Assembly (NCBI RefSeq): GCF_030384885.1
Contig: NZ_CP128613.1
Reading direction: 5' to 3' (one strand)
DNA length: 64,000 nt
Origin: Escherichia coli
GTDB lineage: Bacteria > Pseudomonadota > Gammaproteobacteria > Enterobacterales > Enterobacteriaceae
Positions 617 to 59,080 of the stretch are shown here, in pieces. Numbering within the stretch: position 1 is the first letter of the stretch; each line of letters starts with the position of its first letter. A program made the position numbers and the translations under genes. Below the pieces are notes generated by a model. That model did not search any database and was not told the DNA's origin. It worked only from the letters and a program-made list of their open reading frames with translations.

Positions 617-742
617 ATACTCTAAATAATTCGAGTTGCAGGAAGGCGACAAGAGAGTGAATCCCCTGGAGCTTACATAAGTAAGTGACTGGGGTGAGCG
701 AACGCAGACGCAGCACATGCAACTTGAAGTATGACGAGTATA
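617..742 (+). repeat. ERIC/IRU enterobacterial repetitive intergenic consensus element (126 bp)
   Basis: Contains GTGAATCCCCTGGAGCTTACAT and AAGTAAGTGACTGGGGTGAGCG (the ERIC1R-complement and ERIC2 primer motifs); 126 bp near-identical (2 mismatches) to the inverted copy at 12369-12494. Confidence 0.9.
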
Positions 743-12368: not shown

Positions 12369-12494
12369 TATACTCGTCATACTTCAAGTTGCATGTGCTG
12401 CGTCTGCGTTCGCTCACCCCAGTCACTTACTTCTGTAAGCTCCTGGGGATTCACTCTCTTGTCGCCTTCCTGCAACTCGAATTATTTAGAGTAT
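12369..12494 (-). repeat. ERIC/IRU element, inverted copy
   Basis: Reverse complement of 617-742 with 2 mismatches; lies in the argP-rpiA intergenic region. Confidence 0.9.
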
Positions 12495-14863: not shown

Positions 14864-15006
14864 ACGGTAAAGCCCTCACCGAAGCGAGGGCTTGAAGGAG
14901 AAGGGTTATGATGCGACTTGTCATCATACTGATTGTACTGTTACTCATAAGTTTCCCAGCTTATTAACAGTCAGTCACAGGGGAGGAGCAATCCTCCCTT
15001 ACCCTT
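14864..15006 (-). ncRNA. sibC: SibC (RygC) antisense antitoxin sRNA, about 140 nt; ends approximate
   Basis: Minus-strand promoter-like TTGACA (15042-15037), 17-nt spacer, TAATTT (15019-15014); hairpin AGCCCTCACCGAAGCGAGGGCT at 14871-14892 near the predicted 3' end; fully covers ibsC on the opposite strand. Confidence 0.6.
14908..14967 (+). CDS. ibsC: Type I toxin IbsC, 19-aa hydrophobic peptide (MMRLVIILIVLLLISFPAY)
   Basis: ATGATG start 8 nt downstream of AAGGAG; a single TM-like hydrophobic peptide matching the Ibs toxin family; located between serA and fau, where K-12 has ibsC/sibC; too short for the ORF track. Confidence 0.75.
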   Translation: MMRLVIILIVLLLISFPAY

Positions 15007-15067
15007 ACTCACTAAATTAGGTTAAAGAATCAACGATGTCAATCAGGGCGATGCAGGTGTGTCGCCC

Positions 15068-15688: not shown

Positions 15689-15874
15689 AGGGAATCTCCG
15701 AGATGCCGCCGCAGGCTGTAACCCTTGAACCCTTGGTTCAAGGTGAATGTGTCGTCACAGTTTTAAGGCTTCTCGGACGGACCGAGCATGCTCACCAACC
15801 GCGGAGCGCCACATTCTTGTGGTATGAAATATCGGCTCAGGGGACTGGCCCGCTTGCGAACATCTCAGAGAAAT
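15689..15874 (-). ncRNA. ssrS: 6S RNA (SsrS), regulator of sigma70-RNA polymerase
   Basis: Reverse complement reads AUUUCUCUGAGAUGUUCGCAAGCGGGCCAGUCCCCUGAGCCGAUAUUUCAUACC ... GGCAUCUCGGAGAUUCCCU, the E. coli 6S RNA sequence; ends within a few nt. Confidence 0.93.
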
Positions 15875-25711: not shown

Positions 25712-25738
25712 AAAGGCGCTTTGGCGCCTTTATTTTTG
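25712..25738 (+). terminator. Rho-independent terminator after gcvP
   Basis: AAAGGCGC TTTG GCGCCTTT hairpin followed by ATTTTTG. Confidence 0.8.
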
Positions 25739-29169: not shown

Positions 29170-29350
<181 letters not shown>

Positions 29351-33552: not shown

Positions 33553-35286
33553 GTGAAACAACAGATACAACTTCGTCGCCGTGAAGTCGATGAAACGGCA
33601 GACTTGCCCGCTGAATTGCCTCCCTTGCTGCGCCGTTTATATGCCAGCCGGGGAGTACGCAGTGCGCAAGAACTGGAACGTAGTGTAAAAGGTATGCTGC
33701 CCTGGCAGCAACTGAGCGGCGTCGAAAAGGCCGTTGAGATCCTTTACAACGCTTTTCGCGAAGGAACGCGGATTATGGTGGTCGGTGACTTCGACGCCGA
33801 CGGTGCCACCAGCACGGCTCTAAGCGTGCTGGCGATGCGTTCGCTTGGTTGCAGCAATATCGACTATCTGGTACCAAACCGTTTCGAAGACGGTTACGGC
33901 TTAAGCCCGGAAGTGGTCGATCAGGCCCATGCCCGTGGCGCGCAGTTAATTGTCACGGTGGATAACGGCATTTCCTCCCATGCGGGGGTTGAACATGCTC
34001 GATCGTTGGGCATTCCGGTTATTGTTACCGATCACCATTTGCCGGGCGAAACATTACCCGCGGCGGAAGCGATCATTAACCCTAACTTGCGCGACTGCAA
34101 TTTCCCGTCGAAATCACTGGCAGGCGTGGGTGTGGCGTTTTATCTAATGCTGGCGCTGCGCACCTTTTTGCGCGATCAGGGCTGGTTTGATGAGCGCGAC
34201 ATCGCAATTCCTAACCTGGCAGAACTGCTGGATCTGGTCGCATTGGGGACAGTGGCAGACGTCGTGCCGCTGGATGCTAATAATCGCATTCTGACCTGGC
34301 AGGGGATGAGTCGCATCCGTGCCGGAAAGTGCCGTCCAGGGATTAAAGCGTTGCTGGAAGTGGCCAACCGCGATGCGCAAAAACTCGCCGCCAGCGATTT
34401 AGGTTTTGCGCTGGGGCCACGTCTCAATGCAGCCGGGAGACTGGATGATATGTCCGTTGGTGTGGCGCTGTTGCTGTGCGACAACATCGGCGAAGCGCGA
34501 GTACTGGCAAATGAACTCGATGCGCTAAACCAGACGCGAAAAGAGATCGAACAGGGAATGCAGGTTGAAGCCCTGACCCTGTGCGAGAAACTGGAGCGCA
34601 GCCGCGACACGCTACCCGGCGGGCTGGCAATGTATCACCCGGAATGGCATCAGGGCGTGGTTGGTATTCTGGCTTCGCGTATTAAAGAGCGTTTTCACCG
34701 TCCGGTTATCGCTTTTGCGCCTGCGGGTGACGGTACGCTGAAAGGTTCCGGTCGCTCCATTCAGGGGCTGCATATGCGTGATGCGCTGGAGCGGCTAGAC
34801 ACACTCTACCCCGGCATGATGCTGAAGTTTGGCGGTCATGCGATGGCGGCAGGCCTGTCGCTGGAAGAGGATAAATTCGAACTCTTTCAGCAACGGTTTG
34901 GCGAACTGGTTACTGAGTGGCTGGACCCTTCGCTATTGCAAGGCGAAGTGGTGTCAGACGGCCCGCTAAGCCCAGCCGAAATGACCATGGAAGTGGCGCA
35001 ACTGCTGCGCGATGCTGGCCCGTGGGGGCAGATGTTCCCGGAGCCGCTGTTTGACGGTCATTTCCGTCTGCTGCAACAGCGGCTGGTGGGCGAGCGTCAT
35101 TTGAAAGTCATGGTCGAACCGGTCGGCGGCGGTCCGCTGCTGGACGGTATTGCTTTTAATGTCGATACCGCCCTCTGGCCGGATAACGGCGTGCGCGAAG
35201 TGCAACTGGCTTACAAGCTGGATATCAACGAGTTTCGCGGCAACCGCAGCCTGCAAATTATCATCGACAATATCTGGCCAATTTAG
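33553..35286 (+). CDS. recJ: Single-stranded-DNA-specific 5'-3' exonuclease RecJ (577 aa), GTG start
   Basis: DHH phosphoesterase motifs (VVGDFDADGATS, ITDHH). Confidence 0.95.
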   Translation: MKQQIQLRRREVDETADLPAELPPLLRRLYASRGVRSAQELERSVKGMLPWQQLSGVEKAVEILYNAFREGTRIMVVGDFDADGATSTALSVLAMRSLGCSNIDYLVPNRFEDGYGLSPEVVDQAHARGAQLIVTVDNGISSHAGVEHARSLGIPVIVTDHHLPGETLPAAEAIINPNLRDCNFPSKSLAGVGVAFYLMLALRTFLRDQGWFDERDIAIPNLAELLDLVALGTVADVVPLDANNRILTWQGMSRIRAGKCRPGIKALLEVANRDAQKLAASDLGFALGPRLNAAGRLDDMSVGVALLLCDNIGEARVLANELDALNQTRKEIEQGMQVEALTLCEKLERSRDTLPGGLAMYHPEWHQGVVGILASRIKERFHRPVIAFAPAGDGTLKGSGRSIQGLHMRDALERLDTLYPGMMLKFGGHAMAAGLSLEEDKFELFQQRFGELVTEWLDPSLLQGEVVSDGPLSPAEMTMEVAQLLRDAGPWGQMFPEPLFDGHFRLLQQRLVGERHLKVMVEPVGGGPLLDGIAFNVDTALWPDNGVREVQLAYKLDINEFRGNRSLQIIIDNIWPI

Positions 35287-35376
35287 CGTCATATTATCTA
35301 TAAAAAAGAGCGTGGATTGGGTACAATCCCGCTCTTATCACCGCATTTTGACTAGCTCAATAAAAGAAATCAGACC

Positions 35377-36475
35377 ATGTTTGAAATTAATCCGGTAAAT
35401 AATCGCATTCAGGACCTCACGGAACGCTCCGACGTTCTTAGGGGGTATCTTTGACTATGACGCCAAGAAAGAGCGTCTGGAAGAAGTAAACGCCGAGCTG
35501 GAACAGCCGGATGTCTGGAACGAACCCGAACGCGCACAGGCGCTGGGTAAAGAGCGTTCCTCCCTCGAAGCCGTTGTCGACACCCTCGACCAAATGAAAC
35601 AGGGGCTGGAAGATGTTTCTGGTCTGCTGGAGCTGGCTGTAGAAGCTGACGACGAAGAAACCTTTAACGAAGCCGTTGCTGAACTCGACGCCCTGGAAGA
35701 AAAACTGGCGCAGCTTGAGTTCCGTCGTATGTTCTCTGGCGAATATGATAGCGCCGACTGCTACCTCGATATTCAGGCAGGTTCTGGCGGTACGGAAGCA
35801 CAGGACTGGGCGAGCATGCTTGAGCGTATGTATCTGCGCTGGGCTGAATCGCGTGGTTTCAAAACTGAAATTATCGAAGAGTCGGAAGGTGAAGTGGCGG
35901 GTATTAAATCCGTGACTATCAAAATCTCCGGCGATTACGCTTACGGCTGGCTGCGTACAGAAACTGGCGTTCACCGCCTGGTGCGTAAGAGCCCGTTTGA
36001 CTCCGGCGGTCGTCGCCACACGTCGTTCAGCTCCGCGTTTGTTTACCCGGAAGTCGATGATGATATCGATATCGAAATCAATCCGGCGGATCTGCGCATC
36101 GACGTTTATCGCGCATCCGGCGCGGGTGGTCAGCACGTTAACCGTACCGAATCTGCGGTGCGTATTACTCACATCCCAACCGGGATTGTGACCCAATGCC
36201 AGAACGACCGTTCCCAGCACAAGAACAAAGACCAGGCCATGAAGCAGATGAAAGCGAAGCTTTATGAACTGGAGATGCAGAAGAAAAATGCCGAGAAACA
36301 GGCGATGGAAGATAATAAATCTGATATCGGCTGGGGCAGCCAGATTCGTTCTTATGTCCTTGATGACTCCCGCATTAAAGATCTGCGCACCGGGGTAGAA
36401 ACCCGCAACACGCAGGCAGTGCTGGACGGCAGCCTGGATCAATTTATCGAAGCAAGTTTGAAAGCAGGGTTATGA
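35377..36475 (+). CDS. prfB: Peptide chain release factor 2, made by programmed +1 frameshift (365 aa)
   Basis: Frame 1 encodes [25 protein letters not shown] then an in-frame TGA at 35452-35454; the +1 frame continues [11 protein letters not shown]... through SPF and GGQ motifs to 36475. Confidence 0.93.
35440..35455 (+). promoter_or_regulatory. prfB autoregulatory +1 frameshift site
   Basis: AGGGGG TAT CTT TGA C: an internal Shine-Dalgarno-like element 3 nt upstream of the slippery CUU-UGA-C. Confidence 0.93.
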
Positions 36476-36484
36476 GGAACCAAC

Positions 36485-38002
36485 ATGTCTGAACAACACG
36501 CACAGGGCGCTGACGCGGTAGTCGATCTTAATAATGAGCTGAAAACGCGTCGTGAGAAGCTGGCGAACCTGCGTGAGCAGGGGATTGCCTTCCCGAACGA
36601 TTTCCGTCGCGATCATACCTCTGACCAATTGCACGCAGAATTCGACGGCAAAGAAAACGAAGAACTGGAAGCGCTGAACATCGAAGTTGCCGTTGCTGGC
36701 CGCATGATGACCCGTCGTATTATGGGTAAAGCCTCCTTCGTTACTCTGCAGGATGTCGGTGGTCGCATTCAGCTGTATGTGGCTCGTGACGATCTGCCGG
36801 AAGGTGTTTATAACGATCAATTCAAAAAATGGGATCTCGGCGATATCCTCGGCGCGAAAGGTAAACTGTTCAAAACCAAAACTGGCGAACTGTCGATCCA
36901 TTGCACCGAGCTGCGTCTGCTGACCAAAGCACTGCGTCCGCTGCCGGACAAATTCCACGGTTTGCAGGATCAGGAAGCGCGCTATCGTCAGCGTTATCTG
37001 GATCTCATTTCTAACGATGAATCCCGCAACACCTTTAAAGTGCGTTCGCAGATCCTCTCTGGCATTCGCCAGTTCATGGTGAATCGTGGCTTTATGGAAG
37101 TTGAAACGCCGATGATGCAGGTGATCCCAGGCGGCGCGGCGGCGCGTCCGTTTATCACCCATCACAATGCGCTGGATCTCGACATGTACCTGCGTATCGC
37201 GCCGGAACTGTACCTCAAGCGTCTGGTGGTTGGTGGCTTCGAGCGTGTATTCGAAATCAACCGTAACTTCCGTAACGAAGGTATCTCCGTACGTCATAAC
37301 CCAGAGTTCACCATGATGGAACTCTATATGGCTTACGCGGATTACAAAGATTTGATCGAGCTGACCGAATCGCTGTTCCGTACTCTGGCACAGGATATTC
37401 TCGGTAAGACCGAAGTGACCTACGGCGACGTGACGCTGGACTTCGGTAAACCGTTCGAAAAACTGACCATGCGTGAAGCGATCAAGAAATATCGCCCGGA
37501 AACCGACATGGCGGATCTGGACAACTTCGACTCTGCGAAAGCGATTGCTGAATCTATCGGCATCCACGTTGAGAAGAGCTGGGGTCTGGGCCGTATCGTT
37601 ACCGAGATCTTCGAAGAAGTGGCAGAAGCACATCTGATTCAGCCGACCTTCATTACTGAATATCCGGCAGAAGTTTCTCCGCTGGCGCGTCGTAATGACG
37701 TTAACCCGGAAATCACTGACCGCTTTGAGTTCTTCATTGGTGGTCGTGAAATCGGTAACGGTTTTAGCGAGCTGAATGACGCGGAAGATCAGGCGCAGCG
37801 CTTCCTGGATCAGGTTGCCGCGAAAGACGCAGGCGACGACGAAGCGATGTTCTACGACGAAGATTACGTCACCGCACTGGAACACGGCTTACCGCCGACA
37901 GCAGGTCTGGGAATTGGTATCGACCGTATGGTAATGCTGTTCACCAACAGCCATACCATCCGCGACGTTATTCTGTTCCCGGCGATGCGTCCGGTGAAAT
38001 AA
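36485..38002 (+). CDS. lysS: Lysyl-tRNA synthetase, constitutive (505 aa)
   Basis: Class II aaRS motifs; begins [33 protein letters not shown]; cotranscribed downstream of prfB. Confidence 0.96.
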
Positions 38003-38020
38003 GCATTACGTTATGCTCAC

Positions 38021-38048
38021 AACCCCGGCAAATGTCGGGGTTTTTTAT
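38021..38048 (+). terminator. Rho-independent terminator after lysS (overlaps the idi stop)
   Basis: CCCCGGCAAATGTCGGGG hairpin followed by TTTTTTATTT. Confidence 0.8.
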
Positions 38049-38593
38049 TTAAGCTGGGTAAATGCAGATAATCGTTTTCTGGCTTCGCGATTTGTCGCCT
38101 GCATCACCATCCACGGACTGAACGCCCACGGCGTGGCATCAATACCGCGTAAAACCGCTGCTAAATCACACCATTGATAATCCATCACTTCATCATCGTT
38201 GATCTGTAACGCACTGGTCGTGCGTGCGGCAAATACCGGACATACTTCATTTTCTACAATGCCATTCGGATCGGTGGCGCGGTAGCGAAAGTCAGGATAG
38301 ACCGGTTCTGGTGCTGTTATTTCCACACCCAGTTCAAAGCGGCAACGGCGGATCACCGCGTCTTCGTTGCTTTCGCCCAGTTGTGGGTGCCCACAAACCG
38401 AGTTAGTCCACACGCCCGGCCATGCTTTTTTGCTAAGGGCGCGGCGGGTAACTAATAATTGCCCTTTGGCATTAAACAGCCAGCAGGAGAACGCGAGATG
38501 TAAGAGAGTGTCTGCCGTGTGTGCGGCATACTTTTCCAGCGTACCCGTGGGAACTCCCTGTGCATTCAATAAAATGACGTGTTCCGTTTGCAT
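38045..38593 (-). CDS. idi: Isopentenyl-diphosphate delta-isomerase (Nudix-type, 182 aa)
   Basis: Begins [41 protein letters not shown]; conserved Cys/Glu active-site region. Confidence 0.93.
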
Positions 38594-57417: not shown

Positions 57418-59042
57418 ATGAATATTTTCACAGAGGCTGCAAAACTTGAAGAGCAAAATTGTCCGTTTGCGATGGCGCAAATTGTTGATAGCCGAGGCTC
57501 GACTCCCCGCCATTCTGCACAAATGTTAGTGCGCGCCGATGGTTCTATCGTCGGTACAATTGGTGGTGGAATGGTTGAGCGGAAGGTGATTGAAGAGTCG
57601 CTTCAGGCATGCAGGAACGTAAGCCGCGATTATTCCATGGACGTATGGCTCGTAACGGTGTGGATGCTGTCGGGTCAGATTGTGGAGGTGCAATGTCCGT
57701 GTTTATCAGCGTCCATGGTATGCGTCCTCGTCTGGTGTTGATTGGCGCGGGGCATGTCAATCGGGCGATAGCCCAGAGTGCGGCGCTATTAGGATTTGAT
57801 ATTGCCGTTGCCGATATTTATCGCGAAAGCCTTAATCCTGAATTATTCCCATCATCAACCACGCTTCTCCATGCTGAGTCGTTTGGTGCGGCAGTGGAAG
57901 CACTGGATATTCGCCCTGATAATTTTGTCCTGATTGCCACGAATAATCAGGATCGTGAAGCCCTCGACAAACTCATTGAACAGCCCATTGCATGGCTGGG
58001 GTTGCTGGCAAGTCGCCGCAAGGTTCAGCTTTTCCTACGTCAATTGCGTGAGAAAGGCGTGGCTGAAGAACATATTGCCCGTTTACATGCGCCCGTTGGT
58101 TACAACATAGGTGCGGAAACGCCGCAGGAGATCGCCATCAGCGTGCTGGCAGAAATATTACAGGTGAAAAATAACGCGCCGGGTGGGCTGATGATGAAAC
58201 CTTCTCATCCTTCCGGACACCAGCTGGTGGTGATTCGCGGTGCGGGGGATATCGCCAGTGGTGTGGCGCTACGTCTGTATCATGCGGGTTTTAAAGTGAT
58301 CATGCTGGAAGTGGAAAAACCGACAGTGATTCGTTGTACCGTGGCGTTTGCCCAGGCCGTGTTCGATGGCGAAATGACGGTCGAAGGCGTCACTGCCCGC
58401 CTGGCAACCAGCTCTGCGGAAGCGATGAAACTTACCGAACGCGGATTCATCCCTGTGATGGTAGATCCCGCCTGTTCATTGCTTGATGAACTGAAACCGC
58501 TTTGCGTGGTGGACGCTATTCTGGCGAAACAGAATTTGGGTACGCGGGCAGATATGGCACCAGTAACAATCGCGCTTGGGCCGGGCTTTACTGCTGGGAA
58601 GGATTGCCATGCGGTAATTGAAACAAATCGCGGGCACTGGCTCGGTCAGGTGATTTACTCTGGTTGTGCGCAGGAGAATACCGGTGTTCCCGGCAATATT
58701 ATGGGGCATACCACCCGACGGGTGATCCGTGCTCCTGCTGCAGGCATTATGCGATCCAACGTGAAATTAGGCGATCTGGTGAAAGAGGGCGATGTGATTG
58801 CCTGGATTGGTGAGCATGAAATTAAAGCACCGTTGACGGGGATGGTGCGTGGCTTGTTGAACGACGGACTGGCGGTGGTCGGTGGTTTTAAAATTGGTGA
58901 TATCGATCCACGTGGTGAAACGGCTGATTTCACCAGCGTTTCTGATAAAGCCCGGGCAATTGGCGGCGGCGTACTTGAGGCGTTAATGATGTTGATGCAT
59001 CAGGGCGTTAAAGCGACAAAAGAAGTGCTGGAAGTGGCTTAA
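57418..59042 (+). pseudogene. yqeB: XdhC-family molybdo-hydroxylase maturation protein YqeB, reading frame interrupted in this sequence (N-terminal 107-aa ORF and 477-aa ORF in different frames)
   Basis: XdhC N-domain (MNIFTEAAKLEEQNCPFAMAQIVDSRGSTPRHSAQMLVRADGSIVGTIGGGMVERKVIEESLQA) is in frame 1 and stops at 57741; the rest (RKPRLFHGRMARNGVDAVGSDCGGAMSVF..., Rossmann LVLIGAGHV...) is in frame 0, open from 57594. The span is 1625 nt, one short of the 1626 nt needed for a single 541-aa reading frame. Confidence 0.55.
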
Positions 59043-59047
59043 ATGAA

Positions 59048-59080
59048 AATGGCCGGATGGTATTACCCACCCGGCCTTTA
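59048..59080. terminator. Hairpin between convergent yqeB and yqeA (probable bidirectional terminator)
   Basis: GGCCGGATGGTATTACCCACCCGGCC inverted repeat flanked by A/T. Confidence 0.55.

Follow-up and report, generated by a model that had tools for sequence, protein, structure and literature searches.

The question raised by the prfB locus of this stretch of Escherichia coli DNA (64,000 nt of contig NZ_CP128613.1, referred to throughout as the window) was whether the stop codon that halts its reading frame after 25 codons is a programmed recoding site in a working gene for release factor 2 (RF2), and what the alanine lying four residues before the GGQ motif of the product says about the strain of origin. 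The analysis leaves us nearly certain that the locus is a canonical E. coli prfB, from which RF2 is produced via the classical autoregulatory +1 frameshift, that it carries the Ala246 allele and that its source is non-K-12.

prfB occupies positions 35377-36475 on the plus strand, between recJ (33553-35286) and lysS (36485-38002). On translation, frame 0 ran from the ATG at 35377 through 25 codons (35377..35451, plus strand) and was halted at codon 26 by the TGA at 35452-35454. The +1-frame segment (codons 26-365; 35453..36475, plus strand) opens with GAC (Asp26) and continues for 340 sense codons without interruption to the stop TGA at 36473-36475, and skipping the T of the internal TGA joins the two segments into a product of 365 aa. 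The coordinates match the RefSeq prfB of NZ_CP027579.1, which is annotated as a 'programmed frameshift' in two joined pieces. A preliminary description of the window had called the programmed frameshift intact, and this arrangement, a 25-codon frame 0, a UGA and an open +1 frame, bears that out.

The bacterial prfB +1 programmed frameshift motif is reportedly that of Craigen & Caskey in 1986 and Baranov et al. in 2002; every one of its elements was found in the window, which showed no difference from it and carries the archetype sequence itself. The SD-like AGGGGG (35440..35445, plus strand) lies 3 nt 5' of the CUU codon and is separated by a TAT spacer from the CTT at 35449-35451 on the same strand. 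The shift site CUU-UGA-C (35449..35455, plus strand) is identical to that of K-12, and within it the slippery CUUU (35449-35452) overlaps the in-frame UGA of codon 26 (35452-35454), an RF2-specific stop that is followed by a weak-context C at 35455. The consensus drawn from 8,164 bacterial prfB genes that contain the frameshift is AGGGGG, a 3-nt spacer, CTTT, TGA and C (PMC12421855); the cassette of the window matches it throughout, its SD-like element in both spacing and sequence. The pattern AGGGGGNNNCTTTGAC, with at most one mismatch allowed, was found once in the 64 kb window against a chance expectation of 0.04, and the frameshift motif AGGGGGTATCTTTGAC also had a single occurrence in the window versus 0.04 expected by chance, the chance figure being taken from dinucleotide-preserving shuffles. 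No family covered the recoding site of prfB when the whole window was scanned with Rfam at gathering scores.

The 16-nt cassette (35440-35455) was unchanged in five lineages (the window, K-12, REL606, JJ1886 and O157:H7), as was the frame-0 segment 35377..35451. Both the SD-like AGGGGG and the CUU-UGA-C reported in the preliminary description were present, base for base the same as the K-12 cassette. The 61-mer of the window around the shift site was found exactly in 997 genomes and at 95-99% identity in 4,423 more, so that it is kept in 5,420 of 5,426 genomes. Every sampled match in the 95-99% band had one mismatch, consistent with a silent T/C difference at 35458; the silent T at this position, 3 bases past the shift site, is not unusual, since the exact 61-mer of the window occurs in 997 genomes.

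The joined product was compared with release factor models. It scored 525.9 bits against NCBIfam TIGR00020 (prfB; cut-off 370), with an alignment that covers profile positions 2-353 of 353 and product residues 12-362 and spans the frameshift junction. RF1 models gave 304-306 bits, under their cut-offs of 400 and 423, and the TIGR00020 score exceeded both its own cut-off and the scores of the RF1 and RF-H models. A PCRF domain (PF03462, 207.5 bits) was found at residues 31-219 and an RF-1 domain (PF00472, 146 bits) at residues 228-337. The SPF tripeptide, the RF2 stop-codon recognition motif, is at residues 205-207 (35990..35998, plus strand; AGC CCG TTT), and the GGQ motif at residues 250-252 (36125..36133, plus strand) is the one with a role in peptidyl-tRNA hydrolysis, its Q252 being the site of methylation by PrmC (PMC5373646). 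As the E. coli B protein of identical sequence has been characterised (PMC5373646), the RF2 of the window would be predicted to terminate at UGA and UAA.

An uncorrected list of open reading frames holds at prfB just two ORFs, one of 25 aa and one of 293 aa that starts with ATG, and prfB is annotated as a pseudogene in one other genome, NIPH17_0036; on this footing the interruption at codon 26 might be put down to a mutational frameshift or an error in sequencing, with prfB a pseudogene. This reading is extremely improbable. K-12, REL606, JJ1886 and O157:H7 have the interruption too, within an identical 16-nt cassette, the surrounding 61-mer has the near-universal distribution given above, and the joined product fits the RF2 model end to end, junction included. 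Among the five lineages prfB had 35 polymorphic sites, 34 of them silent, which indicates strong purifying selection on the gene; the single replacement site is the Thr246 of K-12. RF2 is, moreover, the sole release factor that decodes UGA (PMC5373646). The interruption is read here as the programmed frameshift, and gene callers must fuse both frames at this locus.

Codon 246 (36113..36115, plus strand) is GCA (Ala) in the window and ACG (Thr) in K-12. In the context YRASGAGGQ, with GGQ at 250-252, the alanine is residue 246, four before G250, and the position first assigned to it was confirmed on the joined 365-aa product. The prfB of the window differs from that of K-12 EMG2 at 28 nucleotides in 1,099 nt, 27 of them silent, and A246 versus T246 is the sole amino-acid difference from the EMG2 RF2 (WP_010723217.1), the other 364 of the 365 residues being in common. 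The leader, frame-0 ORF and cassette (35300-35457) and the operon context are the same in K-12 as in the window. The preliminary description had ascribed to K-12 a threonine at this position and a less active RF2. The first was found in EMG2, whose codon is ACG and which does not share the alanine, and on the second the literature agrees (PMC5373646, PMC9997739). Thr246 is described as a K-12-specific reduced-function allele (PMC5373646, PMC9997739), its product being poorer in peptidyl-tRNA hydrolysis, less active at UGA and in need of methylation by PrmC (PMC5373646). EMG2, MG1655 and W3110 have the RF2 Thr246 mutation in common, and further K-12 markers are rph-1, rfb-50, the ilvG frameshift and alleles of rpoS and rpsG (PMC9997739), at loci outside the window.

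The window shares GCA at this codon with JJ1886, GCG was found in REL606 and O157:H7, and the ACG of K-12 is separated by a single G>A transition from the GCG of the closest relatives of K-12. The Thr246 of K-12, with its poor termination at UGA, arose by that single change (GCG to ACG). By direct translation the RF2 of the window is that of REL606, JJ1886 and O157:H7, and the accession WP_001701073.1 is annotated in REL606, JJ1886, O157:H7, O104:H4 and the human isolate 2013C-4282. This is the RF2 of E. coli B ('RF2^B' in PMC5373646), the same 365-aa sequence including Ala246, SPF 205-207 and GGQ 250-252. The frameshift cassette and the gene order recJ-prfB-lysS-idi are likewise the same in E. 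coli B as in the window, and REL606 prfB differs by silent changes alone in a genome background that is ~3-4% divergent.

Among solved structures, the best matches of the window RF2 were E. coli RF2 chains. The top-scoring chain, PDB 1GQE / 1MI6 (the E. coli RF2 crystal structure), has Ala246 as in the window and reads ...KLYEVE where the window RF2 reads ...KLYELE. When five distinct E. coli RF2 sequences from the PDB were aligned over window RF2 residues 229-299, Ala246 was seen only in 1GQE/1MI6, and Thr246 was present in the other four, 5DFE, 6OGF, 8P16 and the 1ML5 group (including 5MDV and 5U9F). As four of the five aligned sequences carry the Thr246 of K-12, much structural work uses the atypical protein.

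The distribution of the alleles was surveyed with a 61-mer centred on codon 246, in K-12 context and with each codon in turn, against 5,426 complete E. coli genomes. The version with ACG (Thr) was exact in 338/5,426 genomes and that with GCG (Ala) in 3,046/5,426, counts that are lower bounds because an exact 61-mer misses other silent haplotypes, including that of the window itself. The 151 genomes that gave no megablast match to this 61-mer, the haplotype of the window among them, are accounted for by the lack of a surviving 28-nt exact word. Sixty-four of the 338 Thr carriers were inspected by name and all 64 were K-12 laboratory derivatives, MG1655, C600, J53, DH5alpha, DH1, HMS174, RV308 and RR1 among those named. 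A wider survey of 1.84 billion cluster representatives yielded 150 diverse release factors, 145 of them with a recognisable GGQ; in these 145 the residue four before GGQ was Ala in 79, Ser in 65, Gly in one and Thr in none. Judged by these surveys, Ala246 is the ancestral state common to essentially all E. coli and the Thr246 of K-12 is derived.

It might be argued that with Ala246 the window strain has an allele of special adaptive value or one that marks its lineage, as the nucleotide haplotype of its prfB is rare, with at least 99% identity over 1.2 kb in 10 of 5,425 matching genomes. The rarity of the haplotype is wholly silent, with the protein the same across the sampled lineages, Ala or Ser is near-universal at the position and it is the Thr of K-12 that represents the derived state, so that a special allele is very unlikely. 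Being ancestral and near-general in E. coli, Ala246 excludes an unmodified K-12 but nothing beyond that, and marks no particular lineage.

The strain background was established from the window as a whole. Identity to K-12 EMG2 was 95.7-98.1% across the 64 kb, and identity to REL606 was 96.2-97.0%. The closest comparison was with 2013C-4282 (NZ_CP027579.1 4465996-4529995), an E. coli human stool isolate from the USA. Over 64 kb, 4 SNPs and 2 one-base indels separate it from the window, with no difference in prfB, and the two agree at 100% over a 24 kb piece. That the window might be an exact copy of NZ_CP027579.1 4465996-4529995 was considered and rejected, as direct comparison shows these SNPs and indels. 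The haplotype of positions 24000-48000 was rare, reaching at least 99% identity over 24 kb in 3/5,426 complete E. coli genomes; the best matches over the 24 kb were 2013C-4282 and 'ST3' at 100%, followed by others at 98.4-98.7%, with lower-ranked listed matches at 96.6%.

The non-K-12 origin proposed in the preliminary description from one residue was upheld by these comparisons, namely the divergence from EMG2 and the near-identity to 2013C-4282. Swaps of the RF2-B allele have been used in RF1-knockout and ribosome-profiling strains. K-12 RF2^B constructs exist (PMC5373646), and an engineered K-12 whose prfB had been 'repaired' to T246A would carry Ala246 in a K-12 background. For the window the chance of this is next to nil, given 27 more, silent, prfB differences from K-12, several intergenic indels with respect to EMG2 in addition to the low identity over 64 kb, and a distance of no more than 4 SNPs and 2 one-base indels to an isolate from human stool. 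Another candidate source, E. coli B (BL21 or REL606), is classically the laboratory strain with Ala246, and REL606 has the same RF2 protein, WP_001701073.1. Here too the probability is negligible, with codon 246 GCA in the window versus GCG in REL606 and with the nucleotide identity to REL606 given above. The nucleotide divergence rules out K-12, a T246A derivative of K-12 and E. coli B far more strongly than residue 246 does. On sequence grounds the window is from a natural, non-K-12 E. coli near-identical to 2013C-4282.

From published work on the identical sequence, with PMC12421855 for the mechanism, we infer how the frameshift operates, how it responds to the level of RF2 and that the Ala246 protein is the more active one. 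Ribosomes would read the 25 codons of frame 0 and arrive at UGA-C, a weak stop recognised only by RF2. With RF2 abundant, termination at UGA-C would free a 25-residue peptide. With RF2 scarce, the ribosome would pause and AGGGGG would pair with the anti-SD of 16S rRNA, which is located outside the 64 kb window; the peptidyl-tRNA-Leu would slip from CUU to UUU and GAC would be read as codon 26, leading to full-length RF2 (365 aa). The output of RF2 and the shift would in this way form a negative feedback loop. For the K-12 sequence identical to that of the window, it is known that frameshift efficiency drops with rising RF2 (PMC12421855; PMC5373646), and this identity with the studied site suggests that RF2 autoregulation is kept in the window strain.

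Isogenic K-12 strains showed prfB frameshifting of ~28% with the K-12 allele versus ~21% with the B allele, which also gave less RF2 synthesis (PMC5373646). Both decreases fit a more active RF2 that is required in smaller amounts. By analogy, B-allele-like frameshift behaviour would be expected of the window strain.

The 5' region of prfB was compared among the five lineages. No polymorphic site was found in 35300-35457, which takes in a 77 nt leader, the frame-0 ORF and the shift site, and 35300-35631 had one polymorphic site in 332 nt versus 34 in the other 844 nt of the gene. With the polymorphism rate of the remainder of prfB as a rough Poisson expectation, the absence of any site had P ~0.004 over the 158 nt and ~0.06 when only the 81 coding nt were counted. 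Selection on the RNA, extending well past the 16-nt cassette, is one tentative explanation, to which we give a rather low probability; its targets could be, for example, the initiation rate, ribosome spacing or structure tuning frameshift efficiency. Chance and recombination history could also account for the invariant region.

lysS, encoding lysine-tRNA ligase (36485..38002, plus strand), begins 9 nt past the prfB stop on the same strand. In a scan of 35000-38300 no terminator-like site was found between prfB and lysS, and a terminator-like hairpin of 9 pairs (6 G-C) followed by a T-run was located after lysS (38021..38042, plus strand), identified by consensus match only. This combination is consistent with a prfB-lysS transcription unit, and the two genes are probably co-transcribed, with the hairpin at 38021-38042 likely to be the end of the unit. 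A weak hairpin at 35314-35329 was set aside, as it was scored on the minus strand, and only the hairpin after lysS was convincing. A consensus scan of 35000-38300 gave no sigma-70-like promoter at the threshold used, so that the promoter of prfB was not located.

Several further features of the window and of the genomes surveyed were recorded. In yqeB (57418-59042, plus strand), which is assigned to selenium-dependent molybdenum cofactor biosynthesis, one T is missing at window positions 57592-57620 (GGCATGCAG) compared with GGCATTGCAG in 2013C-4282 and K-12. Without this T the gene falls into two ORFs, one of 107 aa (57418-57741) and one of 477 aa (57609-59042); this is either a genuine pseudogene of the source strain, made by frameshift, or an error of sequencing. 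Rfam gathering scores identified a SIB RNA (sibC antitoxin; 14892-15042, minus strand) opposite the 19-codon ibsC toxin gene, the 6S RNA (ssrS; 15691-15874, minus strand) upstream of fau, and naRNA4, a REP-derived nucleoid-associated RNA (29178-29255, minus strand), between trhA and ygfZ.

Two ERIC/IRU elements of 126 bp are present, one in the pgk-fbaA spacer (617-742, plus strand) and one in the argP-rpiA spacer (12369-12494, minus strand). They are 98.4% identical and in opposite orientation, and both contain AAGTAAGTGACTGGGGTGAGCG, which we take to be the ERIC2 primer sequence. EMG2 (K-12) lacks the argP-rpiA copy and retains in that spacer ~100 nt of additional LysR-like ORF remnant. Three sequences, all typed by eye, are found in EMG2 and not in the window: REP/BIME-like sequence between fbaA and mscS (~130 nt; window ~1872-1908), REP/BIME-like sequence between yqeB and arcC (~150 nt; window 59050-59077) and a Box C-like G/C-rich element between gcvP and ygfF (~207 nt; window 25731-25733). 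REL606 also has ~207 nt extra between gcvP and ygfF in comparison with the window.

Among the surveyed genomes, NIPH17_0036 (NZ_AP024561.1) has a prfB that carries a pseudogene annotation ('internal stop; incomplete') and matches at only 95.8% over a shorter span (378-1447 of that locus). A prfB match was absent in 1/5,426 genomes, and one prfB match lay on a plasmid-typed record. These three cases are probably artefacts of assembly or typing.

Both the prfB recoding site and the wild-type RF2 allele are textbook matters, all published and already known. On the evidence of its sequence, the source strain would possess a fully active, ancestral RF2. Findings in K-12 that are tied to weak termination at UGA, such as read-through and a need for PrmC and RF3, should be carried over to this strain only with care. 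The locus bears on a familiar caution, that the termination factor of the K-12 reference is a derived one of reduced function.
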